In this document: positions 9,277-54,680 of the stretch, in pieces
Position numbering within the stretch: position 1 is the first letter of the stretch
Layout: every line of letters starts with the position of its first letter
Origin: a plasmid
DNA length: 64,000 nucleotides
Sequence record: NZ_CP084013.1
Direction: 5' to 3' (one strand)
Program-made: the position numbers and the translations under genes
The notes under the pieces: generated by a model
What the model saw: the letters and a program-made list of their open reading frames with translations, nothing else
Told to the model about the DNA's origin: nothing
Database searches by the model: none

Positions 9277-9306
9277 ATCGGTTAATAACAACATCAAAAT
9301 CTATCG
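9277..9306 (+). promoter_or_regulatory. motif-2 copy (GAATATCGGTTAATAACAA)
   Basis: shared with the upstream regions of the FtsK-like, ParA-like, rep and 53539..54207 genes. Confidence 0.5.
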
Positions 9307-9314
9307 TGGAATAT

Positions 9315-12300
9315 ATGCCACGAGGAAACTTCTACCGTCCAGAAAGCTTTATAAGCCCGGCCAGCGAATACGGGCTGCTCCGTTCTGCCACGCCGGATCG
9401 CACCGTATGGCTGTACGCGCGCATCCCCTGGAGCACTGCATTGCTGGATGGAGCCAACGACCGGAAACGCAACGATGCCGCGCAACAGCTGATGGCGTTC
9501 TTCGACGGCCTCGCCAATCAGGTCACGGTTGCCGGTATGCGCTACCGTTACATGCTTCAAAGCGAATATCGCGAATTCCATCTACTCACCGGATCCATGC
9601 CCGTCCGATACAGTCCGCCGGCCAGCATGAGGGACACCGACCTCGGACGATACCAGGCGCAGTACTACCGTAGCCAGAAGGTATGCAAGCAGTTCGCGGT
9701 CATCGGCGTTCCTTTGAAACTGGTCGGGGATCATAGCAACAATCGCAAGCCCGGCATGCTGCAACGCGCCCTGACATGGTACGACCGCATGTGCTATTCG
9801 GTGGCAAACGGATGCCCAATGTTCGAAGAGTATCTGCCAGACGCGCATAATATCGAACGAATCATGCTCAACGCCGGGCTGGAACCATTCACCATCATGG
9901 ATGAGCAGGAACGCGAACAGCTGGTCGCCATGATGGAATCATGGTGGGTGGGGCGCGCCAACTCGTCGGCCCTGCCTATCCTGGCGGAGAACGCACACGT
10001 GCATTTCTTCCCGGATAACGCGACCTGCGCCCACGCCAAAAACCTGTACGACAATGGCGTGGACTGCACCGAGTGGAATATCGACGAAGAATACCCGGCC
10101 AGCATCTGCTTCGCACGCACGGCGGATTTCAACCAAAGCAGCATCACGGATCCAAACAACCTGTGGATTGCTAGACTCATGGAAGTCGGACGAGCCGGCG
10201 GAGCCAATGCGGTCGCCACAAGCATCCGAGGCAAAGTCGAACCGGCGAAAGTCACCGCCGACCAGATTCGACGCAACAGCCGCACCATCGACGAAAGCAT
10301 TAAGGAACGGTACGAGAAAGGCCATGAAGCCCCCGGTGATATGACCGAAATCAAGGAGCGTTTGGATTATAAGAAGGCAATCTACAATACTCCGGACATG
10401 CCGCCCAGCATCATTGATCTGAGCGTCGCCACCTGCGTGGCGGGCAACGAGCAGATGGCCATCGACGCTTTGGGGTGTATCCCCAACATCGAGTTCGTCA
10501 ATCTGACGACGGCTAGCGAACAGTTGATGGCGTTCAAAAGCATGCAGGCCTGTTCGAACGTACGCATGACCCCCTATGAGATCCACTGGGCCGCAACATG
10601 CGTCGCGGGAGGAGGCGTGAGCAGTTTCGCCAAAGCAGGCGACAGGGACGGAGCTCTTGTCGGATTGTCCGAAGCCAACAGGCAACCGGTGTATATCGGG
10701 ACAACAACCGTGCAGGACAAGGACAGGCGTCCAATTTTGGCTATTATCGGAGATACAGGAAGCGGGAAGGCCGTTCACATTTCCTCCACAATTCCGGTTC
10801 CCCCTCAGGCTAGCTTCCCCCATGGAAAAATGGCTAAGATCAGCGATTTGCATGAGGGAGACCTCGTCTACGGGCGGGACGGAAAACCTTATCCACTCCT
10901 CAAGCTTCATCCGATTCACACGGAAGATCTTTACGAAGTCACCCTCAGTGACGGTCAAACGATAAAAGCCAGCGGGAACCACCAGTGGATCGTCTCCGAT
11001 TTCAAAGATCGAAACAAATTCAGAAAACCAAAACATTTGAAATCCCAACAGCGTAAGAACATGCTGTCGGAGACATACGATGAGCTATGTCGGATGTCTG
11101 ATGCGCTACCGGCCCAATCAACCATGAGCGTGAACGAGCTTGCAGAGTTTGTCCATCCAGTAACGAGTCGTTGGTGGAGCGGAGAGAGCAATGCCAAGAC
11201 CATTGCCGCAGCGCTGCGATTTATGGGAGTTGAATCTCATCAAGAACAGCGAGACCGCGCGATAGCGGATACAAAAAAACCTTTTAAGACTCGGCAGAAC
11301 TGTAGGCGCTATAACACGCAGGAAGCTCTTCGGGCTTTGATTGCACATTATGATGGCGTGGCGCAGCATGCGAAAAGATGGAACGATCTCGCCAGGGAGC
11401 GTGCGGATGTCCTAAGAAAGCATTTGGAAGATAACTATCCGAAGGGCATCAGCATCACTGACATACAGAAGATGCTCGAGGATCGTTCACCAAGCCGTTC
11501 CTCTATCGCATCTGTCATAAAAACGCTCAATCCAATCAGTGAGTGGGATACGGAAGAACGAATTCACTCCGACAGAATGCGTCATGATTCGGTATCCGTA
11601 TACAACGTTCGAGAAGCATGCAGAGCCATAGGGCAACGCATGATGCTTCGTTATGAGGGGGCCTTCAACGAGACCAATTCCCTTGGATATTGTGAACAGG
11701 TTGTGACTACGCGAGACATGCTTGCGTCTGGTCTAAAGGATTCAGGCAATCGTGCGCAATGGGCAATCCGAGCCGCGATGCCTGTTGCCAACCCGCAAGC
11801 CGACCTGCCACTTGACCCATGGGTTTTAGGGGCTTGGTTAGCCGACGGTAGTATCGGCACTGGAATCATCGCTTCAGATAACAGGAATGGTGATTTGCAG
11901 CATGTGAAGTCCTGTCTCACCTCTGCGGGATTTTCTCTAGGAAGCATCAATACGCCGATGGTCGTGAATGTGAAGGGGCTTGTCTCCATTCTTCGCGATA
12001 TGGGGATACTCCGCGAAAAACGCATTCCTGAGATCTACTTCTCGGCGAGCATCGAGCAAAGACTCTCCCTCGTGCAGGGGTTGCTGGATCAGGATGGGAC
12101 CATCTCCTCAAATGGGAATATAGAGTTCACCCAGTCCGCCGATCATCTGCCGATTGTCCGAGGAATGGTGCGCCTGCTGAGATCTCTGGGAATCGTCGTT
12201 CACGAACCCCATCTCAACAAAGCAGGATACACGGCTGATGGTGTGCGTCACGAGGCTCAGGATCGTTATCGCATCACCTTCACGACGGATCTGCCGGTAT

Positions 12301-13634
12301 TCTCTTTGCAACGCAAAGCGGCTTTAATCCCTACGACGTTGAGACAAACCCAGCAATGGCTATACGTCAAAGACATCAGGAAGATATCCAACGCGCCTCA
12401 TCGTTGTCTGACCGTTGGAAGCCCTGACCATTCGTTCCTCATCGCTGATTACGTGCCGACCCATAATACGATGGCGGCGTTCAGCCTGTTTCTGCAATGG
12501 TCGAAGATTGACGCGCGTGACGGTAAAGGCAAGACCCCGTGCATTTACATTAATCCGAAGGCCGGTAATGATTTGGAGGATGCGACCCGTTCGCAGGGTG
12601 GTACGGTCATCCGGTTGGATTCCGATGTGGCCAACGGCACGTTCGACCCGTTCAACGTGATTCCGAATGTGGAGGAGGCCAAGGAAATCGCCGTCCTGAT
12701 GATGACGAACATTCTTGGCGGTGACACAAAGATGGAATCCGCCATGACAGCCATGCTGGATTACGGCGTCAAACACGGGGCGCGTTACGTAGGCCGGGCT
12801 CTGCTTGTCGCCGCCCAAGCTGTTGCGAAGACCATCAAAGCGGGGAACACGGCGGAGTCCATTGGGTTGCCTTCCAACACCCTCGAGGTGTTTTCGACAA
12901 TCAGCATGAACCTGAAGGCGAACCAGGGACTACGTCTTATCTTCGGCACCGATAATGACACCAAGCCGTTGACGATCAGCCAAAACCTGACCCTCATCAA
13001 TGCCGGAGACCGTTCACTCATCCCCGAAGGCCAAGATGATTCCATGACCGCTCGCATCCGCCAGTGGACGTTGCGAATGGTCGTCATGGGAGCCGGCACC
13101 GCCGTTCGAGGCCGCGATGGCATGGTAGGTGTCGATGAGGCATGGGTGTTCATGGGCAAGGACAAGGGAGCTTCCCGAACCTTCGAACAATGGGTGCGTA
13201 TGGCCCGTTCGCAACGATTCACGCCTGTCATCATCAGCCAGAAAGTGCAGGAGTTCATCGATGCCGACTTGACCGGAGGTATCAGCCGCGCCCTCCTTCT
13301 GGCGTTGGACAACCCGGAAGAAGCCAATGGCACGGTCAGTCCGGCCAAATCAGCGGAACGACTCCTAGGCATCGAAGACCCCAATGGTCGGATCTTGCAG
13401 CGCATGGGAGCCGATGATACTTTGGACAACGGTCAGCCGAACCCGAACAGTCTGAAGCGCCTGGTAAGCGCATCGACGAGGAAGACCGTTCGCGGAGCCG
13501 TCGCCTATTTCAAAGACGGGTCCAAGCAGCCTATTCCAGTGGAAATCGTGATTCCTCCGGCATTGTTGAAGGAAATCAGCACCACTGCCACGGACAAGAT
13601 CGCACGAGAACAACGAAAGAACAAGGAGCAGTGA
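9315..13634 (+). CDS. VirB4/TraE-like conjugative ATPase interrupted by an intein
   Basis: Walker A GDTGSGK|...|T is split by the insertion; Walker B VDEAWVFMG downstream; the first ATG after the upstream terminator is taken as start (the ORF track opens at a TTG at 9213). Confidence 0.75.
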   Translation: MPRGNFYRPESFISPASEYGLLRSATPDRTVWLYARIPWSTALLDGANDRKRNDAAQQLMAFFDGLANQVTVAGMRYRYMLQSEYREFHLLTGSMPVRYSPPASMRDTDLGRYQAQYYRSQKVCKQFAVIGVPLKLVGDHSNNRKPGMLQRALTWYDRMCYSVANGCPMFEEYLPDAHNIERIMLNAGLEPFTIMDEQEREQLVAMMESWWVGRANSSALPILAENAHVHFFPDNATCAHAKNLYDNGVDCTEWNIDEEYPASICFARTADFNQSSITDPNNLWIARLMEVGRAGGANAVATSIRGKVEPAKVTADQIRRNSRTIDESIKERYEKGHEAPGDMTEIKERLDYKKAIYNTPDMPPSIIDLSVATCVAGNEQMAIDALGCIPNIEFVNLTTASEQLMAFKSMQACSNVRMTPYEIHWAATCVAGGGVSSFAKAGDRDGALVGLSEANRQPVYIGTTTVQDKDRRPILAIIGDTGSGKAVHISSTIPVPPQASFPHGKMAKISDLHEGDLVYGRDGKPYPLLKLHPIHTEDLYEVTLSDGQTIKASGNHQWIVSDFKDRNKFRKPKHLKSQQRKNMLSETYDELCRMSDALPAQSTMSVNELAEFVHPVTSRWWSGESNAKTIAAALRFMGVESHQEQRDRAIADTKKPFKTRQNCRRYNTQEALRALIAHYDGVAQHAKRWNDLARERADVLRKHLEDNYPKGISITDIQKMLEDRSPSRSSIASVIKTLNPISEWDTEERIHSDRMRHDSVSVYNVREACRAIGQRMMLRYEGAFNETNSLGYCEQVVTTRDMLASGLKDSGNRAQWAIRAAMPVANPQADLPLDPWVLGAWLADGSIGTGIIASDNRNGDLQHVKSCLTSAGFSLGSINTPMVVNVKGLVSILRDMGILREKRIPEIYFSASIEQRLSLVQGLLDQDGTISSNGNIEFTQSADHLPIVRGMVRLLRSLGIVVHEPHLNKAGYTADGVRHEAQDRYRITFTTDLPVFSLQRKAALIPTTLRQTQQWLYVKDIRKISNAPHRCLTVGSPDHSFLIADYVPTHNTMAAFSLFLQWSKIDARDGKGKTPCIYINPKAGNDLEDATRSQGGTVIRLDSDVANGTFDPFNVIPNVEEAKEIAVLMMTNILGGDTKMESAMTAMLDYGVKHGARYVGRALLVAAQAVAKTIKAGNTAESIGLPSNTLEVFSTISMNLKANQGLRLIFGTDNDTKPLTISQNLTLINAGDRSLIPEGQDDSMTARIRQWTLRMVVMGAGTAVRGRDGMVGVDEAWVFMGKDKGASRTFEQWVRMARSQRFTPVIISQKVQEFIDADLTGGISRALLLALDNPEEANGTVSPAKSAERLLGIEDPNGRILQRMGADDTLDNGQPNPNSLKRLVSASTRKTVRGAVAYFKDGSKQPIPVEIVIPPALLKEISTTATDKIAREQRKNKEQ
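10770..12467 (+). other. intein (566 aa) with LAGLIDADG homing-endonuclease domain inside the VirB4 P-loop
   Basis: N-extein ends GSGK and the C-extein resumes TMAAFSLF, restoring GxxGxGKT; the insert ends ...ADYVPTHN before +1 Thr; two LAGLIDADG blocks (LGAWLADGSIG, LVQGLLDQDGTIS); Hint-like N-terminal block DLVYGRDG. Confidence 0.75.
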
Positions 13635-14402: not shown

Positions 14403-14467
14403 TTCACCGAATCATTCAAAGTCGGTAAATTTTTACCGACTTTTGCCTTCCGTAAGGGGGTCATCCT

Positions 14468-20845: not shown

Positions 20846-21090
20846 TTAGAATTTTGACACCTTTCTTAGAATTCTGACACCAAATTTAGAATTTGGACAC
20901 CATTTTTAGAATTATGACACCTTTCTTAGAATTTTGACACCATCTCTGCGAATGCCATCGAACCACACCCCGATTGCCTACGATCAGAGCGGTCACAGCC
21001 TTAGAATTTTGACACCCTCGCTTAGAATTTTGACACCGACTCTTAGAATTTTGACACCCGTTCTTAGAATTTTGACACCGACATGGCCTC
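20846..21090. repeat. iteron array: about 9 direct repeats of TTCTTAGAATTTTGACACC (period about 22 bp) in two clusters
   Basis: five copies at 20846-20945 and four at 20999-21085, directly upstream of the rep gene. Confidence 0.75.
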
Positions 21091-21124
21091 TCAGCCCTTA
21101 TGGCAGTAGGGCTAAGCGGCACCC

Positions 21125-21163
21125 CCAAGTGATATTACAAGTGATATTACAAGTGAATATACA
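21125..21163. repeat. 3 tandem 13-bp repeats (AAGTGATATTACA)
   Basis: agtgatattaca agtgatattaca agtgaatataca, followed by the CT-rich ctctctcttaatctctctc. Confidence 0.5.
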
Positions 21164-21365
21164 AACTCTCTCTTAATCTCTCTCCACTTCGACCCGCGAT
21201 CCACCGGGATGCCGCTGACGCGGCAAATGCCACACGCTCTCCTGCACCTGTTTCGACCTCGGAAAAGAAGAATCCAGTCGGTTCGCTTGGCAGCGAACCT
21301 CAGAGCAAACAAAAAAAAAGACTGAATCTCGGACGAACAGGATTGCCGTACTCGTTCTTTCTAGT

Positions 21366-21404
21366 ATCGGTTAATTTCAATAAATCTTCGGTTAATAACA
21401 AAAC
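21366..21404 (+). promoter_or_regulatory. motif-2 copy with two CGGTTAAT half-sites
   Basis: atcggttaatttcaataaatcttcggttaataacaaaac upstream of the FtsK-like gene. Confidence 0.5.
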
Positions 21405-21415
21405 TCGAAGATAGA

Positions 21416-24400
21416 TTGACAATCATGGCAAGCAGAAACAGCAGGAGCAGAACACAGACCCGTCCTATATCGAGTGGCGTCTGGTTTTCGCTGTTTCTTG
21501 TCTTTGGAATTATCCTCTGGTTCTTTTGGCGCCTGCCCTTGGTCCCGTTCCTTTGGCTTGGCATGCTCGCCGGAGGAATCACACAACAGTATCCGGTCAA
21601 CGCTTCCGGAAGCCGCAAGGATCCCCCATCCGACAAGCAGATGATGGTCTACCACCGTTGGAAGGACATGCTTGCCGGTCTTATTCCGAATGCGGATTGG
21701 CTGGAGATTCGTCGTGTTTCCTGGTGGATGGGCTGGATGGGCGGCATGCTGCTGGGATTGAACGGTGCCGTCTGGATTGCCCTGGTGGATGGCCTGTTCG
21801 GTTTCATGCTCGCCCAAGGCTGGTCGCATTACAGGAATCGGCGCGTTGACCGTAGGCATGTCTACAAGGGCGTCAGTATTCCGGCGTTCCTGACCAAATC
21901 GCCCGCCTGGGCGCGGCTTTTGTCCGTCTCCATGGCGTTGCTGGTTTTCGCCGGGGTCCTGGTTTTCGTGTTGGCGGGATACATGAGCTGGCTGAGCGCT
22001 GTGACGCTTCCGGGGTTCGTGTTCCTGCTACTCGTATGGATGTTGGGGCGCAAACCGCAGTCCCGGTACTGGCGTGAGCTGGTCGAAGGGCAACAGCTGC
22101 TTGATGGTTGGCTTGCCGGGGACGATTTGCAGAAGGCATGGTCGGGAGCCTATCTGACGCAGGTCAACAAAATCGGTTCTTCGGATAATCCTCTGATCGT
22201 CTACCGGATTCGTCTGCAGGGGTCGGACGGTAAGCCTCGCTCGAACGAAGGAGTTTTCAAGCTCGGCGTGGAAGCGTTGCGGGCGCCGGCATTGGCGGAC
22301 GGATACCGTTTCGTGTGTCTACTGTCCGCCAAGCAGAAGAAGAAAGGGGCGGAACAGTTCGACCCGTCCAGTGTCCGTCTGGCGCTTGGCATGGACGAAT
22401 CCTGCATCCCCTCCATCGCGGAGAGAAAGGCCGGCGAAGGTCTTGCCTCTCTCGTCGCCGACATCGCCTATGCGCAAACCGCTTTCATCTGGCATAAACG
22501 CGCCCCGTTGACGTTGGCTCATGATGTGAGCGCCGACGAGAGCAAAGCCGCCTGGCTGTTGGAGATCATCACTCCCCCGCAGGGCGGGGATTCCATCGAC
22601 CGCATCAGCTTCGACTGGCTGGAGGGAGAAGGATCTCCTGCCGAGACTCTGCGGATGCCGGTGTTCGCCGACCTGCAGGACAAGTTCCACCTGGTTGCAT
22701 TCGACGATGCGAAACTATCCGACAAGGGCAACAAGTGGCGGCCGGACGGCATGACCCACAAGAAAGCCTTTGACGATTACATCACCATTTCCAAACGGTT
22801 CAAAAGCGACCAGTCCGCTTGGGTCAAATGCCTCCCGTCGAAACTCAATCCACCGGCACCCATCTACGACTATGAGAAAACCCAGGACTGCGACGGCTGG
22901 CAACTGCATTACCTGCCATTGGTACTCACCGCACCAGCCACGCCGTCCGACTACGAGCGTTGCGACCTTGGCCCATTGCAGCCGGAGGCACGGTTCATCG
23001 GACTCGTGGACGAAGGCTCCGACATGGCCGGACTGATCTGGTCCACCGGAAGCGCGCCCGTACGCATCGACCAGCTGACCGGCAACACCCCCCTTCACCG
23101 CAAGTATGCGGAAGCGTTGATATTCAAAACCCTTATCGACGTGCTTCCCGCAAAAGCGTCCGTGAACATCACGGCCTGCACTCCGCAAAGCAAAGACAAG
23201 CCGATTTGGAGCATCCAATTCCAATTAGGCAACGGCGCGACCGTGGAAGACGCCCGCAAACAGTCCGCCAGAATCCAATCGTCGGTCGGGGCGAAACATA
23301 TTTACTGGGAATGGCGGTCAGCCGACAGTGCGACCGTATGGCTGTGCGACGACCCGTGCCTGGATGTCAGGGACATCAGCCACTGGAATCGCAGATCAAA
23401 GCAAAAGCATCTCATCGAACTCGCCTTAAGCGACTCGTGGGGCGTGGCCGGAGTCAGCGATCCCAGCGGACGCACCCCCGATGTGGTCAGTCTCGGCGCG
23501 TTGCCAAGCAACCATGACGTGTTGTTGGCACGATTCCAGATTCCGGCCGGGTTGGATGTGGACAAGCCCTCACGGAACATAGGCAAGTTCCTGACCAGCG
23601 CAGACTACGCCTACGGGCGTATCCTCCCGCGCGGTGAGGAACACGGTTCGAACCTGTACGACATGGTGCTGGCGAAACGCAGCCCGTTCCCCACCATGGT
23701 CAACGCGGACTGGGATTTCGCCCGCCAGTCGAAACCACGCATGTTCCCGTTGGGCGTGGACGATATGGGCAAACCGGTCTACTGGAGCATGAAGGACACG
23801 TTCCACCTGCTCATCAGCGGCAAATCCGGAACCGGTAAATCCTCCATCGCGCAGATCGTGGTCGCCGAAGCGCTGCTCAAAGGCCATGACATCATCCTCA
23901 TCGACCCATCCAAAGGTTGCATCGACTTCACTCAATGGGCGAAACCGTTGGCGTTGGCGTTCGTCGGCTTGGGCCAGATGCGCGAAACCGAAGCCGTCAT
24001 CGCCTGGCTGCGCAACGAGATGGCACAACGGGTGAAACTGTTCAGCCGGTATGGTGTCGGCAGCATCTACGACCTCGACAAAAGCCAGCTCAATGAGGAA
24101 GAGCTTGCCCACACGAAACCCATCGACATCGTGTTCGACGAATTCAACAGCTACCTGCAAGAGGCCGGCAAGACCACGCAGAACCCGAACAGGGACATCC
24201 AGCTGGCCAACGACAATGCGGCCGTCAGCGCGACGAACAATTCGATACGACGCACCATGAGCGCTCTCGGCAAAATCGTCGTGCAGGGGCGTACCGCAGG
24301 CATCAGCGTCATCCTCGGCGCCCAGCGTCTGACCATGGACGACATGAAGCCGTACAACGCGAACGCCTTCTTCCGTTCGCTCGGCCGAATCCTGTTGGGT

Positions 24401-24823
24401 ATGGACTCCACGGCGGGCATCATCAGCGCGCAGAACCTCAGAGAGGCGAACCGGCTCCAACAGTCGTTGAAGGGCGAAGGCGGGAAAATCCCGCAGGGCC
24501 GCGGAATCTTCGAAACCGCGCAAGGCGAACTGCTGGCCGTCCAAACATGGTGGTCGGGAGGCCAAGAAAAGTTGGCGGAACTGTTCGCCGACCGCACTCC
24601 CCCGCAACCCATCGACTATTCGCGGTTCATGCCATCCGAAGCGGAAACCTACGGCGAAGTGTCCGAAGACGAACTTTCCAAGCTGCTCAGCCAAGGAACG
24701 GATCCACAGACAGCCGGCGAGGAAATCAACGACATGGACGAACTCCACGACATGCTCCACCACCCAGACAACAACGATGCCGATTCCGAAGACGGGGACG
24801 ACATCGAAGAAGTCGACTGGTAG
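21416..24823 (+). CDS. FtsK/SpoIIIE-like DNA translocase with N-terminal polytopic membrane domain (TraB/TcpA-like)
   Basis: about 6 TM helices; Walker A GKSGTGKS, Walker B IVFDEF, motor motif VILGAQRL. Confidence 0.7.
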   Translation: MTIMASRNSRSRTQTRPISSGVWFSLFLVFGIILWFFWRLPLVPFLWLGMLAGGITQQYPVNASGSRKDPPSDKQMMVYHRWKDMLAGLIPNADWLEIRRVSWWMGWMGGMLLGLNGAVWIALVDGLFGFMLAQGWSHYRNRRVDRRHVYKGVSIPAFLTKSPAWARLLSVSMALLVFAGVLVFVLAGYMSWLSAVTLPGFVFLLLVWMLGRKPQSRYWRELVEGQQLLDGWLAGDDLQKAWSGAYLTQVNKIGSSDNPLIVYRIRLQGSDGKPRSNEGVFKLGVEALRAPALADGYRFVCLLSAKQKKKGAEQFDPSSVRLALGMDESCIPSIAERKAGEGLASLVADIAYAQTAFIWHKRAPLTLAHDVSADESKAAWLLEIITPPQGGDSIDRISFDWLEGEGSPAETLRMPVFADLQDKFHLVAFDDAKLSDKGNKWRPDGMTHKKAFDDYITISKRFKSDQSAWVKCLPSKLNPPAPIYDYEKTQDCDGWQLHYLPLVLTAPATPSDYERCDLGPLQPEARFIGLVDEGSDMAGLIWSTGSAPVRIDQLTGNTPLHRKYAEALIFKTLIDVLPAKASVNITACTPQSKDKPIWSIQFQLGNGATVEDARKQSARIQSSVGAKHIYWEWRSADSATVWLCDDPCLDVRDISHWNRRSKQKHLIELALSDSWGVAGVSDPSGRTPDVVSLGALPSNHDVLLARFQIPAGLDVDKPSRNIGKFLTSADYAYGRILPRGEEHGSNLYDMVLAKRSPFPTMVNADWDFARQSKPRMFPLGVDDMGKPVYWSMKDTFHLLISGKSGTGKSSIAQIVVAEALLKGHDIILIDPSKGCIDFTQWAKPLALAFVGLGQMRETEAVIAWLRNEMAQRVKLFSRYGVGSIYDLDKSQLNEEELAHTKPIDIVFDEFNSYLQEAGKTTQNPNRDIQLANDNAAVSATNNSIRRTMSALGKIVVQGRTAGISVILGAQRLTMDDMKPYNANAFFRSLGRILLGMDSTAGIISAQNLREANRLQQSLKGEGGKIPQGRGIFETAQGELLAVQTWWSGGQEKLAELFADRTPPQPIDYSRFMPSEAETYGEVSEDELSKLLSQGTDPQTAGEEINDMDELHDMLHHPDNNDADSEDGDDIEEVDW

Positions 24824-31047: not shown

Positions 31048-31073
31048 TATGTGGACATATTCAAATATACGCA
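31048..31073 (-). promoter_or_regulatory. motif-1 copy (minus-strand orientation)
   Basis: reverse complement tgcgtatatttgaatatgtccacata drives 29794..30969; lies in the divergent region shared with the XRE gene. Confidence 0.5.
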
Positions 31074-31241
31074 GTTATCTGAACATGTATATTATTCGGC
31101 GTGTTGCCTTTATTTCCAAGGCGTTTCTCCTTGTTAGAGAATGCTGAAAAACGCAGTTTTCTGCATGTTGTACAATGGGAGCGTGAACACAACCAGAAGA
31201 CTGGACGACACCAGTCCGACCACTGCATCCAGGAGAGGCGA

Positions 31242-31889
31242 ATGAACCAGCTATCAATCAGACGCCTGCGCCAGCTAGCAGGAAAAACCAAAAACGAGAT
31301 AGCCGACCTGCTGGGCATGAGCGTCAACACGTACAGCAAGTACGAGGACAACCCCATGAGCCTGTCCTACGCCGCATACCATCAGCTCATCGAATATCTC
31401 GAAACAGCAATCCAAATCAGGAAAAAACTGGAAAAGGAGCAACCTATGAACACCCCCATCAAAGCGAAAGTCCGATTCGTCGCACCCGACGAAGACGACG
31501 AGGACCGTCTCAGCGACTACACAGTGCCGATCCCCGAAGGACTGACCGAGGAATTCCACCCCTCGCAACCCGTCACACCGAAGCAGCTCCTCGACTGGGA
31601 AACCAAGAACAAGGAACCATACCCGGGTTATTCGGAGGAATTCTTCAACTGGGAGAACGCTTGGGAAGAGGTCAACCGCGCCCAGCAGAAAGCCGATGGC
31701 GGATATCTCCACCTCTCCGACCCGGTGCCCGTCAGCCCGGAGTTCGACGAGACGACCGGAGAACCCATCACCTACGACGAGCCTCACGTCGTCGTGGATC
31801 CGGAAAGCGGCAACACCAGCGTGTACGTCGACGAGGCTGACATGTCAGCCCAGGAAATCGCCGAATCCGATCCAGTGAACAACAAGTAG
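31242..31889 (+). CDS. XRE-family HTH transcriptional regulator
   Basis: HTH LRQLAGKTKNEIADLLGMSVNTYSKYE; aggagaggcg RBS. Confidence 0.6.
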   Translation: MNQLSIRRLRQLAGKTKNEIADLLGMSVNTYSKYEDNPMSLSYAAYHQLIEYLETAIQIRKKLEKEQPMNTPIKAKVRFVAPDEDDEDRLSDYTVPIPEGLTEEFHPSQPVTPKQLLDWETKNKEPYPGYSEEFFNWENAWEEVNRAQQKADGGYLHLSDPVPVSPEFDETTGEPITYDEPHVVVDPESGNTSVYVDEADMSAQEIAESDPVNNK

Positions 31890-31964: not shown

Positions 31965-32894
31965 ATGGCCTACGCGAAAATCATCGACATCGACGACCCC
32001 GGCTACTTCCGGTTGAAATCAATCGACCAAAGCCAATTGAAACAATTCCTGAAAAACCCGGCCGACTGGGCATATCACCGTCTCAACGACGACCACAAGC
32101 CCACCGACGCCATGAAGTTCGGTACGGCGTTCCACGCTTACCTGCTCGGCACCAGCGACGTTGTCAGCCTGCCTGAGGGAGAGAGCTTCAGGAGCAAAGA
32201 CAACCAGAAGTGGCGAGCAGACCAGCTGGAAGCAGGAAACATCATCGTCTCCTACAATGACATGCAACTGCTCAAACGCATGAAAGAAGGCATCGAACAG
32301 ACCAGTCTCATGCCCGAATACCCCGATTACATGGAAATCATCGAACAGGGAACCAAGGAACAGTGCATCGAATGGAAGGACCGTCAAACCGGTCTGATGC
32401 TCAAGGCGAAGCCTGATCTGATTCCTGCCGGCACCGATTACCTGGTCGATTTGAAAACCGCCCAGAAGGCCGACGCGGAATCATTCGCCAAGGAAGTCAT
32501 CAACTACGGTTATCACATTCAGACCGTTTTCTACCGTGCCGCGGTAGCCGCATGCAAGCCGGACGCCTTCGACCGTGGATCCAAGGCTCCCAGCACCATG
32601 CAATTCTGGGTGTTCGAGAAATCCGATGCCTGCGACTGGCAGCCTTTCAGCATCAGCGATGACAATCCGATCACGAATCTTGCCGCGACCAGCATCCGCC
32701 AAGCACTCTTGGGCATCGCCTTGATGGTCAAGAAAGCCAAGGAGGAAGGCTACGCAGAGAACACTCCAGACCCCGTGGACGCCGCCGCGAAGTATGCGCT
32801 CCGACATGGTTTCAACAAGAAGGTCAAGGAGGTTTCGTTCCAGAACTGGCAGCTGCTGACTGCGGAAAACATGCTCTGCGATCTCGCCAGCTGA
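31965..32894 (+). CDS. PD-(D/E)XK (RecB/Cas4-like) nuclease
   Basis: motifs GTAFHAYLL, D...DYLVDLKT and QxxxY (YHIQTVFY). Confidence 0.6.
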   Translation: MAYAKIIDIDDPGYFRLKSIDQSQLKQFLKNPADWAYHRLNDDHKPTDAMKFGTAFHAYLLGTSDVVSLPEGESFRSKDNQKWRADQLEAGNIIVSYNDMQLLKRMKEGIEQTSLMPEYPDYMEIIEQGTKEQCIEWKDRQTGLMLKAKPDLIPAGTDYLVDLKTAQKADAESFAKEVINYGYHIQTVFYRAAVAACKPDAFDRGSKAPSTMQFWVFEKSDACDWQPFSISDDNPITNLAATSIRQALLGIALMVKKAKEEGYAENTPDPVDAAAKYALRHGFNKKVKEVSFQNWQLLTAENMLCDLAS

Positions 32895-34059: not shown

Positions 34060-34403
34060 ACCTGAGACAAGTGCTAGTCCAGACCGTGATAGGACTCATC
34101 GCTATCCTCATAGCCGTCCTATATGCGATGTTCATCGTCCCGCAGGACTGGTTCATCGACTCCAGGGAATCAGTCGTCACCATATCGGTCATAATCTGCG
34201 CGACCGGATACATCATCACGGTCTGGGCCCGTTATATCCGTCATCTCACACGCCGGAGAATCGATCAACGAATCATCCGCGACGCCGAATCCGAGATGAA
34301 AAAAGGTCTTTGGCAAAAACCGAAAATTCTTCGAAATGAACCGACCGCAACCATACGATTGGACAGGAAGCACATCCGACAATCTCAGAGAAAGAGCCGA
34401 TAA
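34056..34403 (+). CDS. small membrane protein
   Basis: two hydrophobic helices; start overlaps upstream stop. Confidence 0.4.
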   Translation: MNLRQVLVQTVIGLIAILIAVLYAMFIVPQDWFIDSRESVVTISVIICATGYIITVWARYIRHLTRRRIDQRIIRDAESEMKKGLWQKPKILRNEPTATIRLDRKHIRQSQRKSR

Positions 34404-35935
34404 TGGTATGGACTCCAGCAACACAGCCGCGTGACCCCCTTGGCAGATTCCGTAAAACCAATCTCGTCCCCGGCGAATACACGTACACCACGCGCAGCGG
34501 CATCGTCAAGAAATACTATGTCAACGATATGAACCAGCTGGCAGACGGGTCCACCATCCTGCACATGAGCGCCCAAGGCAAGGTGTTCGGCAGTTTCAAG
34601 ACCCAGAACCCCATCGAACGCATCCACATCATCGGCAACAGCGATATGGAACAGATGGCCGTCGCGGCGTCCGGGGAAACCACATTCGGCGTGATCAACC
34701 ACAGCAAGGCCGCCCCACCGGACGTGTTCAGCCTCAACCGCGGACACGATTTCCAACCGGTCGGCTCCAACCTGCCGGACGGGGAAACATCCTTTGGGGG
34801 AAGAGCGGCTCAAATCACCGGCCGTCCGGACGGGAAAACCTATGACACGTTGAACGCCCAGAAAGCCGAACAAGCCAACCTCGCGGCGTTCGCAGACCCA
34901 AGCAACCGCGTCTATTCCGCTGACCCCGGCGACTTCGCCGAAGCTGCGGTCCAGGCACGTCATTACTACGAGAAGGAGTTCGGGCTCAGCGAATCCCAAG
35001 CCCGGGAAATGCCGGTCTACGTGTATGCGGACAAGAACGGCAACGTCACCGTGAAACCCGCATACAAGCCTGAAAGCGTTCCCATGAGCGAACTGGGAAT
35101 GCAGCCAGGCGACCCGGTGCCGGAAGGCTTCCATGTGAACGGGGACAATCTCGTCGCCATGGTGCCCCAGCGGAGCCCCAACACGCATGGAGGCAGCGGC
35201 AGCGTCCGTCTCCGTGGCCGTGACCTCACTCGCATGACCAGGGCCATGCAGAAGGATGGTCTCAAGAGCGTCGACTTCACCGTGAGCGGAGGCACCAAGG
35301 TCTCGGCAAAAAGCGGCAAACCGTTGCAGAACGCCTTGCATTTCCGCACCGACTACATGAACCCCCACAGCGGAGACGACATCACCGTATGGGGTTCCAT
35401 CGAAGCGAAACAGTACGGGACGCAGCCGGTCAAGGCACGCAGGGAGTTCACCACCAACGAGGAATTCCAAGACTATACGCGCAAGGTGCAAGCAGTCCGC
35501 GAACGGGCGGCCGCACCATACGTGGATCCGCAATCCCCACAGGCAGCCGCGAAACTGCTGCGAGCCAAGTATGGAACGAATCGGTTCTACAGCAGCGACA
35601 TCCAGATGCGCGACGGCAAAGAGGGAGTGGCCTTTGCCGTCAATACTCCCGGCGGACACGCCCGCATGCTGTCCAACGGGAACGGTGTCTGCATCGGCAA
35701 GGAGCCGGCCGACGCGGAGGGCTTCGCATCCATGTTCAATAACGGCAAGAGTCCGGCCAATCGTATCACCGCCGACAACGTGAAGGTCTTGTCGGATGGT
35801 AATTTCCGCGTCCGGAAAAACGGTCAGGAAACGTTCTACACGCCATCCCTGTCCACTACCCGCGGGACTCGTAGCCGCAACGGAAAACTTTACGGCTACA
35901 ACGAGGCCGGAGATTTCGTCAACTTACCGCGATGA
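34403..35935 (+). CDS. hypothetical protein (510 aa)
   Basis: long ORF with good coding bias; an IS1341-like element is inserted directly after its stop. Confidence 0.45.
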   Translation: MVWTPATQPRDPLGRFRKTNLVPGEYTYTTRSGIVKKYYVNDMNQLADGSTILHMSAQGKVFGSFKTQNPIERIHIIGNSDMEQMAVAASGETTFGVINHSKAAPPDVFSLNRGHDFQPVGSNLPDGETSFGGRAAQITGRPDGKTYDTLNAQKAEQANLAAFADPSNRVYSADPGDFAEAAVQARHYYEKEFGLSESQAREMPVYVYADKNGNVTVKPAYKPESVPMSELGMQPGDPVPEGFHVNGDNLVAMVPQRSPNTHGGSGSVRLRGRDLTRMTRAMQKDGLKSVDFTVSGGTKVSAKSGKPLQNALHFRTDYMNPHSGDDITVWGSIEAKQYGTQPVKARREFTTNEEFQDYTRKVQAVRERAAAPYVDPQSPQAAAKLLRAKYGTNRFYSSDIQMRDGKEGVAFAVNTPGGHARMLSNGNGVCIGKEPADAEGFASMFNNGKSPANRITADNVKVLSDGNFRVRKNGQETFYTPSLSTTRGTRSRNGKLYGYNEAGDFVNLPR

Positions 35936-42991: not shown

Positions 42992-43097
42992 GGTTCTCTA
43001 TGGTAGCGGCAATCAGCGGAATACGAAAAAACGATGTTTGGTGGCGCTTGTCCGGGTTTTCCCCGGTGCGACACGCCGTATATCAAACATATTTTTT

Positions 43098-43124
43098 TGT
43101 TATTAACCGTTGATATTTCAACAT
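43098..43124 (-). promoter_or_regulatory. motif-2 copy (minus-strand orientation)
   Basis: reverse complement gaaatatcaacggttaataacaa upstream of paralog-2 rep. Confidence 0.45.
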
Positions 43125-43171
43125 TATGGCTTGTTTATAGGGTTTCTCTTTTTTGACAGCATCAAAATACT

Positions 43172-43195
43172 TGTTATACTGAATGTGTCCACATA
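43172..43195 (+). promoter_or_regulatory. motif-1 copy heading the RNA-gene region
   Basis: tgttatactgaatgtgtccacata; the next credible features downstream are a structured noncoding stretch, the tmRNA and the tRNA array. Confidence 0.5.
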
Positions 43196-43750: not shown

Positions 43751-44136
43751 TGGGGCTGACAGGCTTTCGATAGCCTGCCGGAAACCATTTGCTACGTGCC
43801 GGAGGCCGGTAAGGACAACCGTCATCAACCTTGCCACAAGAATAGACGCCAACACCGTTTCTTCTTCCCGTTTCACCCTCGTAGCGTGAAACCCGACTTT
43901 GATCCCATTGCCGATTAACGGGTCAAAGCCGGAAAACTTTGAATCGGACTGGTCGGACAGTCGGACGATGGATTCGCCCGACCAGTACATGAACATCGTC
44001 TACAAGCCGTGCGGGTTCGCCGAACGCACCCGTCCACGGATGATCTTCCCCACGCAAGTGGGGATAAACCTACGCACGTGACAGCAAGCAAAGGCTGACA
44101 GCAGGCCAGATCCGAGTTCGATTCTCGGCAGCTCCA
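43751..44136 (+). ncRNA. ssrA: tmRNA (ssrA-like), tag reading frame (A)NTVSSSRFTLVA
   Basis: 5' GGGGCUGACAGGCUUUCGAUAGCC matches the tmRNA P1/P2 consensus; 3' GAGUUCGAUUCUCGG CAGCUCC A forms a T-arm with an acceptor strand complementary to the 5' GGGGCUG; tag ORF GCC AAC ACC ... GTA GCG TGA at about +95. Confidence 0.6.
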
Positions 44137-44244
44137 CGACCCTGATCCATCTCCCATGAGCTTGTGCAGACTCACGGTCTGCGGGTACAGATGAATCGGG
44201 CACGGTACGCATCGCACCGTGACGGACGACAGAAGCGATGCACC

Positions 44245-50906: not shown

Positions 50907-51575
50907 TCACAGTTCTTCATCATGGAATCGGAATGGAGCTTTCGAGGACAGATCCTTTGTCGTTGAATCGTTGACGTTTTCTCCCGTCTTGCCGATTAGC
51001 AGCGCAGGGCCGTTCATCCAACGCCCATCGGACTCGCGTATCTGCATGATCCAAAGCTCCTGACCGTTTTTCCACACGGTGTACAGGCCGTCTGACTTGT
51101 CCTCCCACAGTCCGGGGCGATCCGGAATTCGTGCGGGTGCCGGTCGCAAAGCATGGTCGAATGCGTCGTCATCAATCCGATAGGTGTTGGAGTCAATCAG
51201 GACTAGACAATGGCCGTCATCGGTGATTTCCTGTACTGGATATTTGTTCCCGTTCGTTTGCACGAAGACGTCTCTGGGTTGCACGCCGGTGATGTCTTCG
51301 ATGATTTTGTATTCGGGTTCGTCGGGTAGCAGCTTGATGCTGACGGGTGCTTTCTGCCGGGTGAGTTCCATGAATCCGTCATGGCCTTCGTGGAACAGTT
51401 CGCCGATGTCGAAGCCGTTGACAGTGTATTGCCGGGCTCCGAGCGTGTGTCCGATTCCGGGAGTGAGTCGGAATTCGAGGATCATGTCGCCGCCGTATGC
51501 GGAGACTCGTACCCGTCGGTTTCTGAGCTGGGCGAATGTCATGTTTCGCCAGAAGCGTTTGTCGTGTTCTTCCAT
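50907..51575 (-). CDS. hypothetical protein
   Basis: first gene downstream of the minus-strand motif-1 copy. Confidence 0.45.
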   Translation of the reverse strand: MEEHDKRFWRNMTFAQLRNRRVRVSAYGGDMILEFRLTPGIGHTLGARQYTVNGFDIGELFHEGHDGFMELTRQKAPVSIKLLPDEPEYKIIEDITGVQPRDVFVQTNGNKYPVQEITDDGHCLVLIDSNTYRIDDDAFDHALRPAPARIPDRPGLWEDKSDGLYTVWKNGQELWIMQIRESDGRWMNGPALLIGKTGENVNDSTTKDLSSKAPFRFHDEEL

Positions 51576-51600
51576 TGGTTGTCGTTGTTTTCTTTCGATT

Positions 51601-51624
51601 TATGTGGACGTATTTAGTATAACA
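51601..51624 (-). promoter_or_regulatory. motif-1 copy (minus-strand orientation)
   Basis: reverse complement cttgttatactaaatacgtccacata. Confidence 0.5.
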
Positions 51625-51671
51625 AGTAAAAGAGAATTAAGGGGAGGGGGTGAATCTTCGGAGTGTCGCGA

Positions 51672-51692
51672 TATGCTGAACGCGTCCACATA
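51672..51692 (+). promoter_or_regulatory. degenerate motif-1 copy
   Basis: atatgctgaacgcgtccacata upstream of 51841..52251. Confidence 0.35.
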
Positions 51693-51840
51693 AAAAAACA
51701 AAAGATACACACCGAGAAAACAGCGGAACCCCCAACGCAATTACCTCAGGGCCACCACAAGCGATGCCGAAGACGGCGATTGCGGTTCCCCCAAAACGAC
51801 AAAACGTAATCGGTTGATATCAAAAAAAACAGGAGCCAAC

Positions 51841-52251
51841 ATGACCTTCACGGCAGAACCGAACATCGGATCGCACCTCGTCGAAGCGACACCACCAAAC
51901 CTCTTGGAGCGCTTCGACGAACACATCAAATTTCTCCGGGAATGCAAAATCACCTTCACGAGAAGCATCGGAAGAGGGGACATCCCGTACACGAAAAGCG
52001 CGATGACATTGCTCAACAACATCGACGTGCTGATCGCCGGCGAGGAAGCCGACAAGGAAGTCCTCCGATTCAACAGCGGGGACATGATGGGCATGATACC
52101 GCCAGCCACCAAGCACTATAGGCCCGACCTCGACCTCAGGACCCAGAGTCTCATGGACGGCGGATACACCGAAGCGATGATCAATTCAGACAGGCAGATG
52201 TGGGGCGGCTCGCCCATCTCATTCCCGAACGGCCCGCAGTGGAACAAATAA
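51841..52251 (+). CDS. hypothetical protein
   Basis: ORF downstream of the degenerate motif; exact start uncertain. Confidence 0.4.
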   Translation: MTFTAEPNIGSHLVEATPPNLLERFDEHIKFLRECKITFTRSIGRGDIPYTKSAMTLLNNIDVLIAGEEADKEVLRFNSGDMMGMIPPATKHYRPDLDLRTQSLMDGGYTEAMINSDRQMWGGSPISFPNGPQWNK

Positions 52252-52707
52252 GAACCACGACCGGCGGGCATGCCGAGTGACGACCCCAACGCCTCCAGCA
52301 TGCCCGCCTTTTTTTTGACCAACTTGGACGGCGCGTCGGCCGTCGAATCCGGATGCGAATCGGTGTGAATCGGAGGTTGTTTTTTCTGATGGCGAGGCAT
52401 AAGTCTCACGAGGAGGAACCATTGGGTTGGAGTGTCGGTGATTTCGCTTTGTCGGATCCGGGGTGTCGACTGTATATCGACATGGCCCGGAATGCGTATG
52501 GGAAACTCGACCCGAAACTGGTGTCCTGCAGAATTCATTACCGGCTGCAGTGTCTGAACCTCAGTCCCAGGAAGAAAGGCCAGTAGGTCTTCGGTTCGAC
52601 GGTGTAAAACAAGCATCTGCCTTACTGGGTATGTTGGCATGTCGCGTATGAAAAACCGTAAAATTGTTGGTATCAACCGAAAAAGCAAAAACAGGGGAAG
52701 AGTCGGG

Positions 52708-53472
52708 ATGCTCAACAAAATACACAGGCTGAGAAGCGTCGGGATGGACAACGGCATAGCCACAGGATTCGGAATTCTTTACGTCGCGGAAGAGGCATAC
52801 CCGCTCATCCCATACGTGCGCGGCAACGAACATCCGCTCGCATTCGGCAGGACGCCTCGACTCCTAAGCATCCTGTTCACGACATTCGTGAACACACAAA
52901 ACGCGGATTACAACGGCAAGACCAGGACGCTGACCATCGGCAAGGACGTACGGCAAGTGGCCCGCAGAATGGGCATGCTGACGGGAGGCTGCGGCCGACA
53001 GAATACGGTCACCAGCATCATCGGCTATCAGGACATCACGTTCACTTCAAGGGACGGCAAAGAAATAAAACCGATCGAAGAGACGAACATCGTCCAAGGC
53101 GAAAGCTGGAACGAAAAAACCATTACCTTCACTTGGGAATACGTCCGATTGATGTCGCGCGAACCGAAGGAGATTCCTCTTTCCGCCGTCGTCGGAACCA
53201 GTGGCGGAAGCCTGTCCTTGGATCTGCTGGTGTTCGCGACGCTCTACTGTCCGGAGCAGAAGGAACTGTATATCAGTCGAAATAATCTATACAAGATCGT
53301 CCCCGGTACGAGCACGGAGACGGTGTCCACCAAGCACCTCACCGTCAGCCTCACAAAGCTCAACCAGATTCAGAAAATCTGGGTATTCTCGTTGACGAGG
53401 GCGGGCCTCGTGATCAGACCATACGGGATGCCGCCAAAGGCGGAGAACCGTGTGCAGCTCATCGCGGAATAA
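52708..53472 (+). CDS. hypothetical protein
   Basis: internal ATG after a ggggaagag RBS; ORF extends from 52639. Confidence 0.4.
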   Translation: MLNKIHRLRSVGMDNGIATGFGILYVAEEAYPLIPYVRGNEHPLAFGRTPRLLSILFTTFVNTQNADYNGKTRTLTIGKDVRQVARRMGMLTGGCGRQNTVTSIIGYQDITFTSRDGKEIKPIEETNIVQGESWNEKTITFTWEYVRLMSREPKEIPLSAVVGTSGGSLSLDLLVFATLYCPEQKELYISRNNLYKIVPGTSTETVSTKHLTVSLTKLNQIQKIWVFSLTRAGLVIRPYGMPPKAENRVQLIAE

Positions 53473-53477
53473 TAAAA

Positions 53478-53516
53478 AACGGTTGGATACGGATCCATGT
53501 TCGTATCCAACCGTTC
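53478..53516. terminator. bidirectional terminator
   Basis: aacggttggatacg...cgtatccaaccgtt hairpin between convergent genes. Confidence 0.55.
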
Positions 53517-53538
53517 AAGCATCCCGAGATGCCGGCCG

Positions 53539-54207
53539 TCAGATTTTCAGCTTCTCAACCACACTGAGATCAACGCCGTCACCCCAGTGTTCAGCCACCG
53601 CATTGACATCCTTCATCGGCTCACCGGACGCGCGGCCGAAACCACGATCCGGTTCGGCGGCATTCAAAACAGCGAACAGAGTCTTGGACAGAGTCTTGTC
53701 TTCCATGAACGCGAAAGCAAGCCTCATCTTCAGGTCGGACGGTTGAGCGCCAGCCAGTTCCTTGACGAACTTGGAGAATTCGGCGACCCGCTTCCGCGTC
53801 TTGGTTTCCGTCAACACCTCAAGCAGAACCGGAGCGTCGGTCTTGCTGGTCTCGCACAGAATCTTGGCGATGTTCGCGGTACGGTCATCGGAAAGAACGT
53901 CGAGCATGTCCTTGATCTTCGCGTACGAGGCGGCTTCCAAATGAGGGAAGGACGAGTTTTTCTTCGCGGTCTTGCGCCGCGTGGTCTTGGCACCCTTGAC
54001 GGAGGTTTCTTCCTCACGGTCGGGCGTTGTCTCATCGACGGAATCCGTCTCTTCCGGCTGGACGTCAGGCTGAGAATCCTCGCCCGATGCCGACCAGTTC
54101 TCAGAATCGTCCGCTTGCCCGGCTTCGTTCACCGGCTTGGAATCGTCGACCGGCGCCGGGGCTGGGGTCGGGGTGCCGAAATTGTTGTTCCATGGAAAAT
54201 CTGCCAT
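53539..54207 (-). CDS. hypothetical acidic protein
   Basis: Pro/Asp/Glu-rich N-terminus; motif-2 copy upstream on the minus strand. Confidence 0.45.
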   Translation of the reverse strand: MADFPWNNNFGTPTPAPAPVDDSKPVNEAGQADDSENWSASGEDSQPDVQPEETDSVDETTPDREEETSVKGAKTTRRKTAKKNSSFPHLEAASYAKIKDMLDVLSDDRTANIAKILCETSKTDAPVLLEVLTETKTRKRVAEFSKFVKELAGAQPSDLKMRLAFAFMEDKTLSKTLFAVLNAAEPDRGFGRASGEPMKDVNAVAEHWGDGVDLSVVEKLKI

Positions 54208-54283
54208 CGTTAACTCCCTTCGTCAAGGCAGGACCGTTCGAGTGAACCGTCTTCAACGACTGTATCCGAGCAAACAACGAATA

Positions 54284-54309
54284 ACCGAAAAAATATTGAA
54301 ATTAACCGT
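54284..54309 (-). promoter_or_regulatory. motif-2 copy (minus-strand orientation, two CGGTTA half-sites)
   Basis: reverse complement cggttaatttcaatattttttcggtt. Confidence 0.45.
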
Positions 54310-54647
54310 TTTGACTTCGGCGCGGCGTCGCGCGGCCGCCGTTTCTCATGCAAACTAGCGGACCAGAAAAATCACGGACAAAAACAAAAGAGCAGACAGG
54401 CAACCAAGAAAAGTCAGAAAAAAAGAAGAGAAGAAAAAATAAGAAAAAGACAATCCGAGAACAAGAGAAAGAAGCCAACCCGCAACACATCACACAAACA
54501 CCAAGACACCATTACCACATCACAGCAGGGTAAAACCAGAGCAACGAACCGCAACATTGCCAACAAAGCAACGAACCTACGGAACGAAAACGCAACAAAG
54601 CAACGAACCGCAACAACCCATACATCAGCAAAGTCATCATCCTGAAT

Positions 54648-54680
54648 GGTTAATTTCAACAAATATTCGGCACATAACAA
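54648..54680 (+). promoter_or_regulatory. motif-2 copy
   Basis: ggttaatttcaacaaatattcggcacataacaa, followed by GATTGAC as in the 21366 copy. Confidence 0.45.

Follow-up and report, generated by a model that had tools for sequence, protein, structure and literature searches.

Introduction

Plasmid initiators of the Rep_3 type, such as RepE of F, pi of R6K and RepA of pPS10, are bipartite winged-helix proteins that read asymmetric repeats of ~15–22 bp set about two helical turns apart, and related sites double as operators for autorepression. Elsewhere, one protein serves both partition and global repression, as with KorB/IncC of RK2, where KorA and KorB operators are palindromes, or omega of pSM19035, whose sites are contiguous 7-bp heptads bound in either orientation. 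To our knowledge, no Rep paralogue has an established role in the control of a conjugation regulon. Here we describe motif 2, an element made of two iteron-like direct units that stands in a fixed register before the −10 box of transfer gene promoters, in a stretch of 64,000 nucleotides from the plasmid record NZ_CP084013.1 (the window).

Megablast assigned the window to a Bifidobacterium longum megaplasmid of the pMP7017 family, with 99% identity to NZ_CP146883.1 (the reference B. longum plasmid, hereafter pBL) and about 80% to B. breve pMP7017 (KM406416; pMP), and both of these plasmids were analysed as complete sequences. No conjugative plasmids other than megaplasmids of the pMP7017 type are known in Bifidobacterium. 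These megaplasmids were found in about 10% of surveyed gut metagenomes, most of infant or maternal origin (Dineen et al., 2024, PMC10832533). RepA, RepB and their iterons have been described on pMP7017 (Dineen et al., 2021, PMC8313286): RepA, of the RepA_C family, binds the 15-bp direct repeats GGTGTCAAAATTCTA (A1–A8) and is not needed for replication, the functional origin lies downstream of repB, and repA promoter activity is 3.7-fold lower when cells carry the plasmid. The transcriptome of pMP7017 brought to light a 34-bp element, AWAYATGYTATACTGAATATGTCCACATAAAAWA, here called motif 1, which overlaps the −10 box and was proposed to be a transcription factor site (Dineen et al., 2024, PMC10832533). 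The CGGTTAAT motif that underlies motif 2 is mentioned in neither paper nor in the searchable literature. Our analysis shows motif 2 to be real, open to mechanistic interpretation and, to the extent that the literature can be searched, unpublished.

Motif 2 is a pair of direct units in register with the −10 box

The original prediction, made from the sequence of the window, had placed related sequences upstream of five genes (VirB4-like, FtsK-like, ParA-like, orf222 and repB). They are indeed there: CGGTTAAT occurs five times in the window (at 9279, 21368 and 21389 on the plus strand, and at 43109 and 54308 on the minus strand) compared to 1.04 expected from shuffles, none of which reached five in 100 trials, and the copy at 54648 reads TGGTTAAT. 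Ungapped alignment of the five regions upheld the similarity but replaced the single 19-mer with a composite of roughly 36 nt. This comprises two direct units of 13–15 nt, CGGTTAATwwCAAwA, exactly 21 bp apart from start to start, in the order distal unit (consensus CGGTTAATTTCAATA), variable 6-nt spacer and proximal unit (CGGTTAATAACAAAA); the generalised unit, of 13–15 bp, is CGGTT[A/G]ATwwC[A/G]A. The half-sites at 21366, previously put 17 bp apart, are thus 21 bp apart start to start, with a 13-bp gap. A GATTGAC ending shared by the FtsK-like and ParA-like copies, noted in the original prediction, is not enriched (14 observed, 13.0 expected). Counted from the start of the proximal unit, it falls at 25 nt in the FtsK-like copy, where it is the −10 box TAGATT plus GAC, and at 49 nt in the ParA-like copy; with no common register, it is a coincidence.

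A position weight matrix (PWM, a per-position scoring table) for the unit, trained solely on the five sites of the original prediction, detected seven pairs in the window, compared to 0.47 in shuffles, and nine distinct pairs in pBL, compared to about one. In a control that keeps composition and AT-richness, spacing alone was varied, between 13 and 60 bp, on the unshuffled window sequence: seven pairs fell at exactly 21 bp and 0–1 at any other spacing. The same scan gave nine pairs at 21 bp in pBL and likewise nine in pMP when scored by its own unit. AT-rich low complexity, named beforehand as what might account for the similarity, did not do so in the shuffled control, and is excluded by this 21-bp spike on real sequence of unchanged composition. 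The window holds nine motif-2 locations, and pBL beyond it has two forward sites, at 98336 and 121345, and an inverted pair at 117076. All pairs are at exactly 21 bp, a period of two helical turns.

The six forward sites, those of the VirB4-like, FtsK-like, orf222 and ParA-like genes in the window and the two at pBL 98336 and 121345, share a strict promoter register. From the start of the proximal unit to a TAnnnT hexamer (TATCGT, TAGATT, TACAGT, TAATAT, TATGGT and TACAGT, respectively) the distance is exactly 23 nt in five and 22 nt in the sixth, at the ParA-like gene, and the two pBL sites, independent of the window, have an identical architecture. CGGTTA thereby takes the place of a −35 hexamer having a 17-bp spacer: the proximal unit, at about −36 to −22, stands in for that hexamer and the distal unit lies at about −57 to −43. 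No canonical sigma-70 promoter turned up in the forward-site spacers in a consensus scan, and in the ungapped alignment the units are conserved while the spacers between them and the −10 box are not.

For the VirB4-like gene (9315–13634), the distal unit CGGGTATTTTCAATA at 9258–9272 (plus strand; PWM and alignment) and the proximal unit CGGTTAATAACAACA at 9279–9293 (word count and PWM), in the −35 position, are followed by the −10 box TATCGT at 9302–9307, 7 nt and the ATG at 9315. An intrinsic terminator (9204–9234) directly upstream closes the preceding operon, which is driven by motif 1, and the cassette alone is left to drive the VirB4-like gene. The FtsK/SpoIIIE-like gene (21425–24823) has the distal unit CGGTTAATTTCAATA at 21368–21382 and the proximal unit CGGTTAATAACAAAA at 21389–21403, again at the −35 position (plus strand; both by word count and PWM), with the −10 box TAGATT at 21412–21417, 7 nt and the ATG at 21425. 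On the minus strand, orf222 (53539–54207) is preceded by the distal unit CGGTTAATTTCAATA at 54294–54308, the proximal unit CGGTTATTCGTTGTT at 54273–54287, which was detected by PWM and is degenerate in its 3′ half, and an in-register −10 box TACAGT at 54259–54264, 23 nt from the proximal unit start. The MinD/ParA-like operon (gene 54845–56002 and those downstream; plus strand) has the distal unit TGGTTAATTTCAACA at 54647–54661, the proximal unit CGGCACATAACAAGA at 54668–54682, which is degenerate in its 5′ half and varies among metagenome copies, and the −10 box TAATAT at 54690–54695, 22 nt from the proximal unit start and followed by a leader of about 140 nt. At this promoter, TAATATCAAGAAATGAACAGAC is conserved in pMP7017.

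With TAnnnT 6–8 nt before the start codon and no Shine–Dalgarno sequence, as in leaderless actinobacterial genes, the VirB4-like and FtsK-like genes look leaderless, their transcription starts being predicted ones. The layout of −10 box, 7 nt and ATG is kept in three lineages: the B. longum type, pMP for both genes (TAGCAT for the VirB4-like and TAGTCT for the FtsK-like gene), and L066, one of the divergent lineages introduced below, for the VirB4-like gene (TACAAT). A reading of motif 2 as an RNA element was rejected, as in leaderless genes the motif is upstream of the transcript.

The unit changes in concert between plasmid lineages

The intergenic DNA of pBL and pMP gave no BLAST alignment, and at the orthologous promoters of pMP the register is kept while the unit is changed to GTTAATTGCGAA. 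GTTAAT, the spacing and the distance to TAnnnT persist at the VirB4-like, FtsK-like and ParA-like genes, and GTTAAT is likewise kept, with an unchanged distance to TAnnnT, at the head of the pilus/surface operon (pMP 22404) and at a large surface protein (pMP 172376). The change is in the 3′ half of the unit and is concerted across sites, from wwCAA in pBL to TGCGAA or ACCGTA in pMP. It extends beyond the forward sites: the pMP orthologue of gene 51841–52251 has GTTAATTGCGAA at the matching leader position, and the pair before the gene for a Rep-like protein (described below) is altered in the same manner as the other units. For the pMP orf222 orthologue, the pair (53349, minus strand) lies between the −10 box and the Shine–Dalgarno sequence, not at −35.

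Through orf222 homologues we found three more divergent lineages, L064 from Bifidobacterium sp. SO1 and the Logan assemblies L065 and L066, all of which keep the gene order around orf222 and the ParA-like gene but bear other repeats at these promoters. In L064, two copies of CATGTAAAA lie exactly 21 bp apart, and TAAGCT is 24 nt from where the proximal one starts. In L066, ATACATT-type units precede the −10 box of the orf222-like, membrane-protein, VirB4-like and CHAP genes, and upstream of the ParA-like gene is AATGTAGT, the same word reversed. Scans of metagenomes and IMG/VR provided 54 loci, which represent only two lineages and add little variation, and a scan of genome contigs yielded no relatives of the ParA-like protein.

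Regulon membership is hence conserved while the operator diverges, as expected of a plasmid-encoded factor evolving together with its sites and not of a host factor or polymerase element. This bears on the possibility that motif 2 has no dedicated factor and is either AT-rich low complexity or a set of copied ancestral promoter cassettes read by host RNA polymerase alone, by means of an unusual −35/UP-like element or an alternative sigma. The units are AT-rich, and the forward sites all align gap-free as duplicated cassettes would, but we find this explanation highly improbable given that the shuffle and spacing controls exclude composition, that conservation is confined to the units and does not extend to the spacers before the −10 box, that the units change concertedly at all sites between lineages of closely related hosts, that neither pBL nor pMP has an annotated sigma factor, and that the inverted and leader sites (see below) are not promoter elements. 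Motif 2 is, with considerable confidence, a genuine class of promoters or of operators for a trans-acting factor.

Inverted pairs and single units

Four pairs are inverted relative to the gene that follows, three in the window and the one at pBL 117076. In three of the four, the reverse-complemented unit gives a TTGnnA-like hexamer 17–18 nt before TAnnnT and so supplies a −35-like element, with the units therefore filling the same span in either orientation. One such pair, CGGTTCATTTCGAAG and CGGTTTTTGCCAAAG at 34308–34343 (minus strand, 21 bp apart), is upstream of gene 34403–35935, with the −10 box TACGAT at 34354–34359. A second, CGGTTGATAACGATA and CGGTTTTTAACAAAG at 60364–60399 (minus strand, 21 bp apart), is upstream of a membrane-protein gene (60466–60813); here the reverse-complemented unit supplies the −35-like TCGTTA, and the −10 box is TACACT at 60410–60415. 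The third pair in the window, CGGTTGATACCAACA and CGGTTTTTCATACGC at 52644–52679 (minus strand, 21 bp apart), is upstream of the Rep-like gene and brackets the −10 box of its TTGGCA (52634)-N19-TAAAAT (52659) promoter.

Two genes have single units in their leaders. In that of repB, CGGTTAATAACAAAA at 43095–43109 (minus strand) has no in-register −10 box; the position aligned with the primer-extension start mapped in pMP7017 repB (PMC8313286) is about 48 nt upstream of it. There is just one good unit in this copy, and pMP7017 repB has none. Beside it, at 43110–43130, a near-palindrome, TTGAAATATCAA, resembles the 3′ part of the distal unit reversed. In the leader of gene 51841–52251, which is driven by a motif-1 promoter at 51672, CGGTTGATATCAAAA at 51811–51825 (plus strand) directly precedes the ribosome-binding site. 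Two other sequences resemble a motif-2 unit and have no partner at 21 bp: a perfect palindrome, CGGTAAATTTTTACCG, at 14423–14438 just upstream of the lysozyme gene, and a near-palindrome, CGGTTGAAATCAATCG, at 32010–32025, 45 nt inside a PD-(D/E)XK gene.

Genes behind motif 2

The regulon delineated by these sites is mainly one of conjugative transfer, with a type IV secretion system, translocases, and surface and pilus operons. Downstream of the VirB4-like cassette are the VirB4-like ATPase (AAA_10), a 253-aa protein and a lysozyme, and cassettes precede two FtsK/SpoIIIE proteins. The operon of the ParA-like cassette begins with a MinD/CpaE/BY-kinase-like P-loop protein; further along it encodes proteins of 400 and 151 aa, an 871-aa ATPase, small membrane proteins and a protein of >1000 aa. 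Behind the cassettes in the rest of the plasmid are surface-protein, pilin, sortase and PrgA-like genes (gene assignments partly from PMC10832533, Table S2); small membrane proteins, orf222 and the Rep-like gene complete the set. Motif 2 thus marks a coherent set of promoters that looks like a transfer-control circuit.

Of the transfer, partition and rep genes that the original prediction had motif 2 mark, as part of a conjugation/maintenance circuit, the transfer genes and the conjugation half of the circuit stand, and the maintenance half does not. The rep connection comes down to the lone unit, specific to the B. longum lineage, in the repB leader. The partition label is doubtful because the ParA-like protein, which has no clear ParA signature, is MinD-like and heads a long transfer-type operon, and because a separate annotated ParA family gene is present elsewhere (pBL 136940–137602). 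The case for partition and rep genes as members of the regulon is hence weak.

The same locus raises the question of whether motif 2 might be a dispersed set of centromeres and operators serving the MinD/ParA-like ATPase together with a partner, for instance orf222, and combining partition with global repression. Five of the nine window sites cluster at 51.8–60.4 kb, where the ParA-like gene and the divergent orf222 are located; the sites are scattered across the plasmid in the manner of KorB operators; and orf222, with its conserved N-terminal peptide, disordered linker, basic patch and helical domain, recalls ParA-partner proteins in its architecture. We nevertheless judge this unlikely: besides the points just made about the ATPase and the separate ParA gene, the C-terminal domain of orf222 shows high conservation between lineages that differ in unit sequence, and a centromere would have no need of the strict promoter register. 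Between the divergent orf222 and ParA-like promoters is a purine-rich spacer of ~340 bp (54320–54640) with three copies of CAACAAAGCAACGAACC (54534–54609), which could be a centromere-like or oriT-like site.

The VirB4-like protein differs in length between plasmids, with 1439 aa in the window and 885 aa in pMP7017, and the contiguous alignment of the two covers only aa 1–491. Its residues 904–997 match the Pfam homing-endonuclease domain Hom_end, and these features suggest an intein-like insertion in the transfer ATPase.

Motif 2 had also been held to define a regulon distinct from that of motif 1, and so it proved. Matches to the published 34-bp consensus are found at 11 places in the window (247, 272, 1965, 5003, 5982, 8292, 32966, 37433, 43175, 51621 and 51672), none of which overlaps a motif-2 promoter; gene 51841 alone combines a motif-1 promoter with a motif-2 leader unit. 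The copy at 43175 is upstream of tmRNA (43752–44137) and an array of 20 tRNAs extending to 49042. Motif-1-like promoters (TGTTATACTG...CACATAAA) are retained in L064. An XRE-type helix-turn-helix (HTH) regulator (31242–31889) adjoins a motif-1 promoter (31050–31075) and its recognition helix is identical in both lineages, as is motif 1; it is a possible motif-1 factor.

A Rep-like protein as candidate binder

Our candidate for the binder of motif 2 is a 242-aa protein (52744–53472, plus strand), a RepA_C-like paralogue in a family of winged-helix iteron binders, as indicated by hhalign and HMMER. By inspection, its sequence resembled that of a double winged-helix protein. An exhaustive HMMER search collected relatives in 43 representative clusters at E-values up to 0.001, and P0057, a remote relative among these, matched Pfam RepA_C (E 4.7e-19). 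The profile of the 33-member 242-aa family aligned with a RepB/RepA/P0057 profile over 201 columns with an hhalign probability of 99.2% (E 1.1e-19), and the plasmid therefore encodes a third Rep-like protein. Several features favour it. Proteins of the RepA_C family bind asymmetric direct repeats about two helical turns apart. Its identity between lineages, 46% compared to about 90% for RepA and RepB, matches the divergence of the operator. In both lineages, units bracket its own promoter, as in autoregulation. Finally, its gene is next to orf222 in all five lineages. These sequence relationships make the Rep-like protein a tentative choice as the motif-2 binder, which we would put at somewhat less than even.

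Some other candidates were set aside. For RepA and RepB, conservation of about 90% contrasts with a unit that differs, and the repeats they have of their own are other sequences (PMC8313286). In the XRE regulator at 31242–31889, the recognition helix is identical in two lineages while the unit differs, and its promoter lacks a unit. A CopG ribbon-helix-helix gene (pBL 21139–21420), the one such gene annotated, was rejected as it is not annotated at the syntenic position of pMP7017. The product of 55995–57197, proposed earlier as a winged-helix binder, has no detectable DNA-binding domain, and the protein at 52744–53472 fits better. PDB sequence searches with the 242-aa, 222-aa and 136-aa proteins and with the 242-aa family profile returned nothing meaningful. 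Family searches matched orf222, p400 and p151 to no ParB, HTH or other domain and gave no family match for the 136-aa protein; orf222 has a confidently predicted helical domain with no significant PDB relative.

Proposed mechanism and direction of control

We favour, as a reasonably probable reading of these sequence patterns, that motif 2 is a plasmid-family cis-regulatory cassette whose pairs are bound at transfer promoters by a plasmid-encoded protein, with the 242-aa Rep-like protein the best candidate, probably as a repressor. A sequence-specific protein would occupy the two units of a pair cooperatively, from one face of the helix, and so control access of RNA polymerase to the transfer promoters; the RepA_C-like paralogue would be the regulator that recognises the iteron-like direct repeats. 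Repression would come about by blocking of the −35 region or by a roadblock in leaders, and would include the regulator's own gene. By analogy with RepA, whose sites are alike in unit length, period and promoter position, and from the presence of units in both orientations and in leaders or across the −10 box (gene 51841 in both lineages, orf222 in pMP, repB and the promoter of the Rep-like gene), repression appears the likelier sign, if at little better than even odds.

Several points weigh against this reading. The pairwise BLAST match between the Rep-like protein and RepB is weak, its single-sequence AlphaFold2 model has a pLDDT (predicted local distance difference test) score of 30, the nearby orphans orf222, the 136-aa protein, p400 and p151 are alternative candidate binders, and the cross-lineage comparison comprises a handful of lineages. 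As to sign, the forward promoters have no −35 match, and their 15+6+15 arrangement with the proximal unit over −35 is the classic layout of a class II activator. Surface-protein genes, moreover, were reported from RNA-seq to be highly transcribed in plasmid-bearing cells (PMC10832533), which fits activation, or else incomplete repression.

The paired repeats could accordingly be a class II activator site, of the AraC/XylS, PhoB or SARP kind, that replaces the −35 element and recruits RNA polymerase. The two 15-nt direct repeats with their 6-nt spacer, the strict register in six promoters and the reported high transcription of surface-protein genes behind one such promoter (PMC10832533) all suit it. 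It accounts poorly for units that are inverted at the same position or located in 5′ leaders or across −10 and +1, places from which no activation would be expected; the 25 top Pfam families listed for 126 open reading frames (ORFs) of pBL include no strong AraC, OmpR, SARP or MerR-type domain; and RepA, the one characterised analogue on the plasmid, represses. Activation is thus possible but doubtful, and repression by a plasmid-encoded protein remains our preferred reading.

Motif 2 provides a concrete map of a transfer regulon, together with a set of predicted promoters, of which two would be leaderless, and a specific candidate for the regulator. Should the Rep-like protein be the binder, it would show a route from iteron-binding initiators to transcription factors and offer orthogonal, lineage-specific promoter/regulator pairs for bifidobacterial genetics. 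It is conceivable, if speculative, that a Rep initiator paralogue of the RepA_C/Rep_3 fold was domesticated as master regulator of the conjugation regulon, reading two-unit 'mini-iterons' at the −35 position of every transfer promoter, and that diversification of the protein/operator pair leads to transfer-control specificities private to each lineage, comparable to phage immunity or incompatibility groups.

Comparison with known systems

The closest parallel is on the plasmid itself. Nine RepA iterons, GGTGTCAAAATTCTA, occur in the window at 20861–21093 (minus strand) in two arrays with periods of 21 and 20 bp, and the last iteron of pMP7017 reaches from −40 to −26 relative to the mapped start of repA transcription. 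RepA/A1–A8 and motif 2 thus have in common the plasmid family, 15-bp direct repeats, a period of 20–21 bp and a last repeat over −35. They differ in repeat sequence and in deployment: the RepA repeats stand in tandem, 8–9 of them at one locus, and serve to autoregulate one gene, whereas motif-2 units come in twos at nine or more dispersed promoters and in both orientations. Motif 1 is likewise promoter-associated and specific to the plasmid family, but has another sequence, is located on the −10 box rather than at −35, drives defence, replication and tRNA/tmRNA genes, and is identical between the B. longum and B. breve lineages, while motif 2 diverges.

Among characterised activators and repressors elsewhere, XylS/AraC class II sites and the repeats of the P2 C repressor resemble motif 2 in having two direct repeats with a period of 21–22 bp, the proximal one on a core promoter element. 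No XylS/AraC family is found among the 25 top Pfam families listed for the 126 pBL ORFs scanned, and the recognition helix of the XRE regulator does not vary between two lineages in which the motif-2 unit differs. KorA/KorB/TrbA of RK2 and omega of pSM19035 are comparable in that one plasmid protein acts from fixed operator positions at many transfer and maintenance promoters. Unlike KorB/ParB-type sites, the motif-2 units are asymmetric direct repeats, not palindromes, and no ParB or KorA was identified; unlike omega/ParG sites, the period is 21 bp and not 7, and no conserved ribbon-helix-helix protein was identified.

Rep_3/iteron systems share with motif 2 the asymmetric direct repeats and the period of ~20–22 bp; the 242-aa protein is a homologue at the profile level, and its family provides a winged-helix protein of the Rep type besides the known initiators. 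Motif 2 is unlike an iteron origin in having two units per site, no adjacent AT-rich/DnaA-box region, and positions locked to −10 boxes and gene starts. Altogether, motif 2 is of a known kind, a plasmid global-regulation circuit, but with an unusual architecture in which two-unit, iteron-like operators replace the −35 element.

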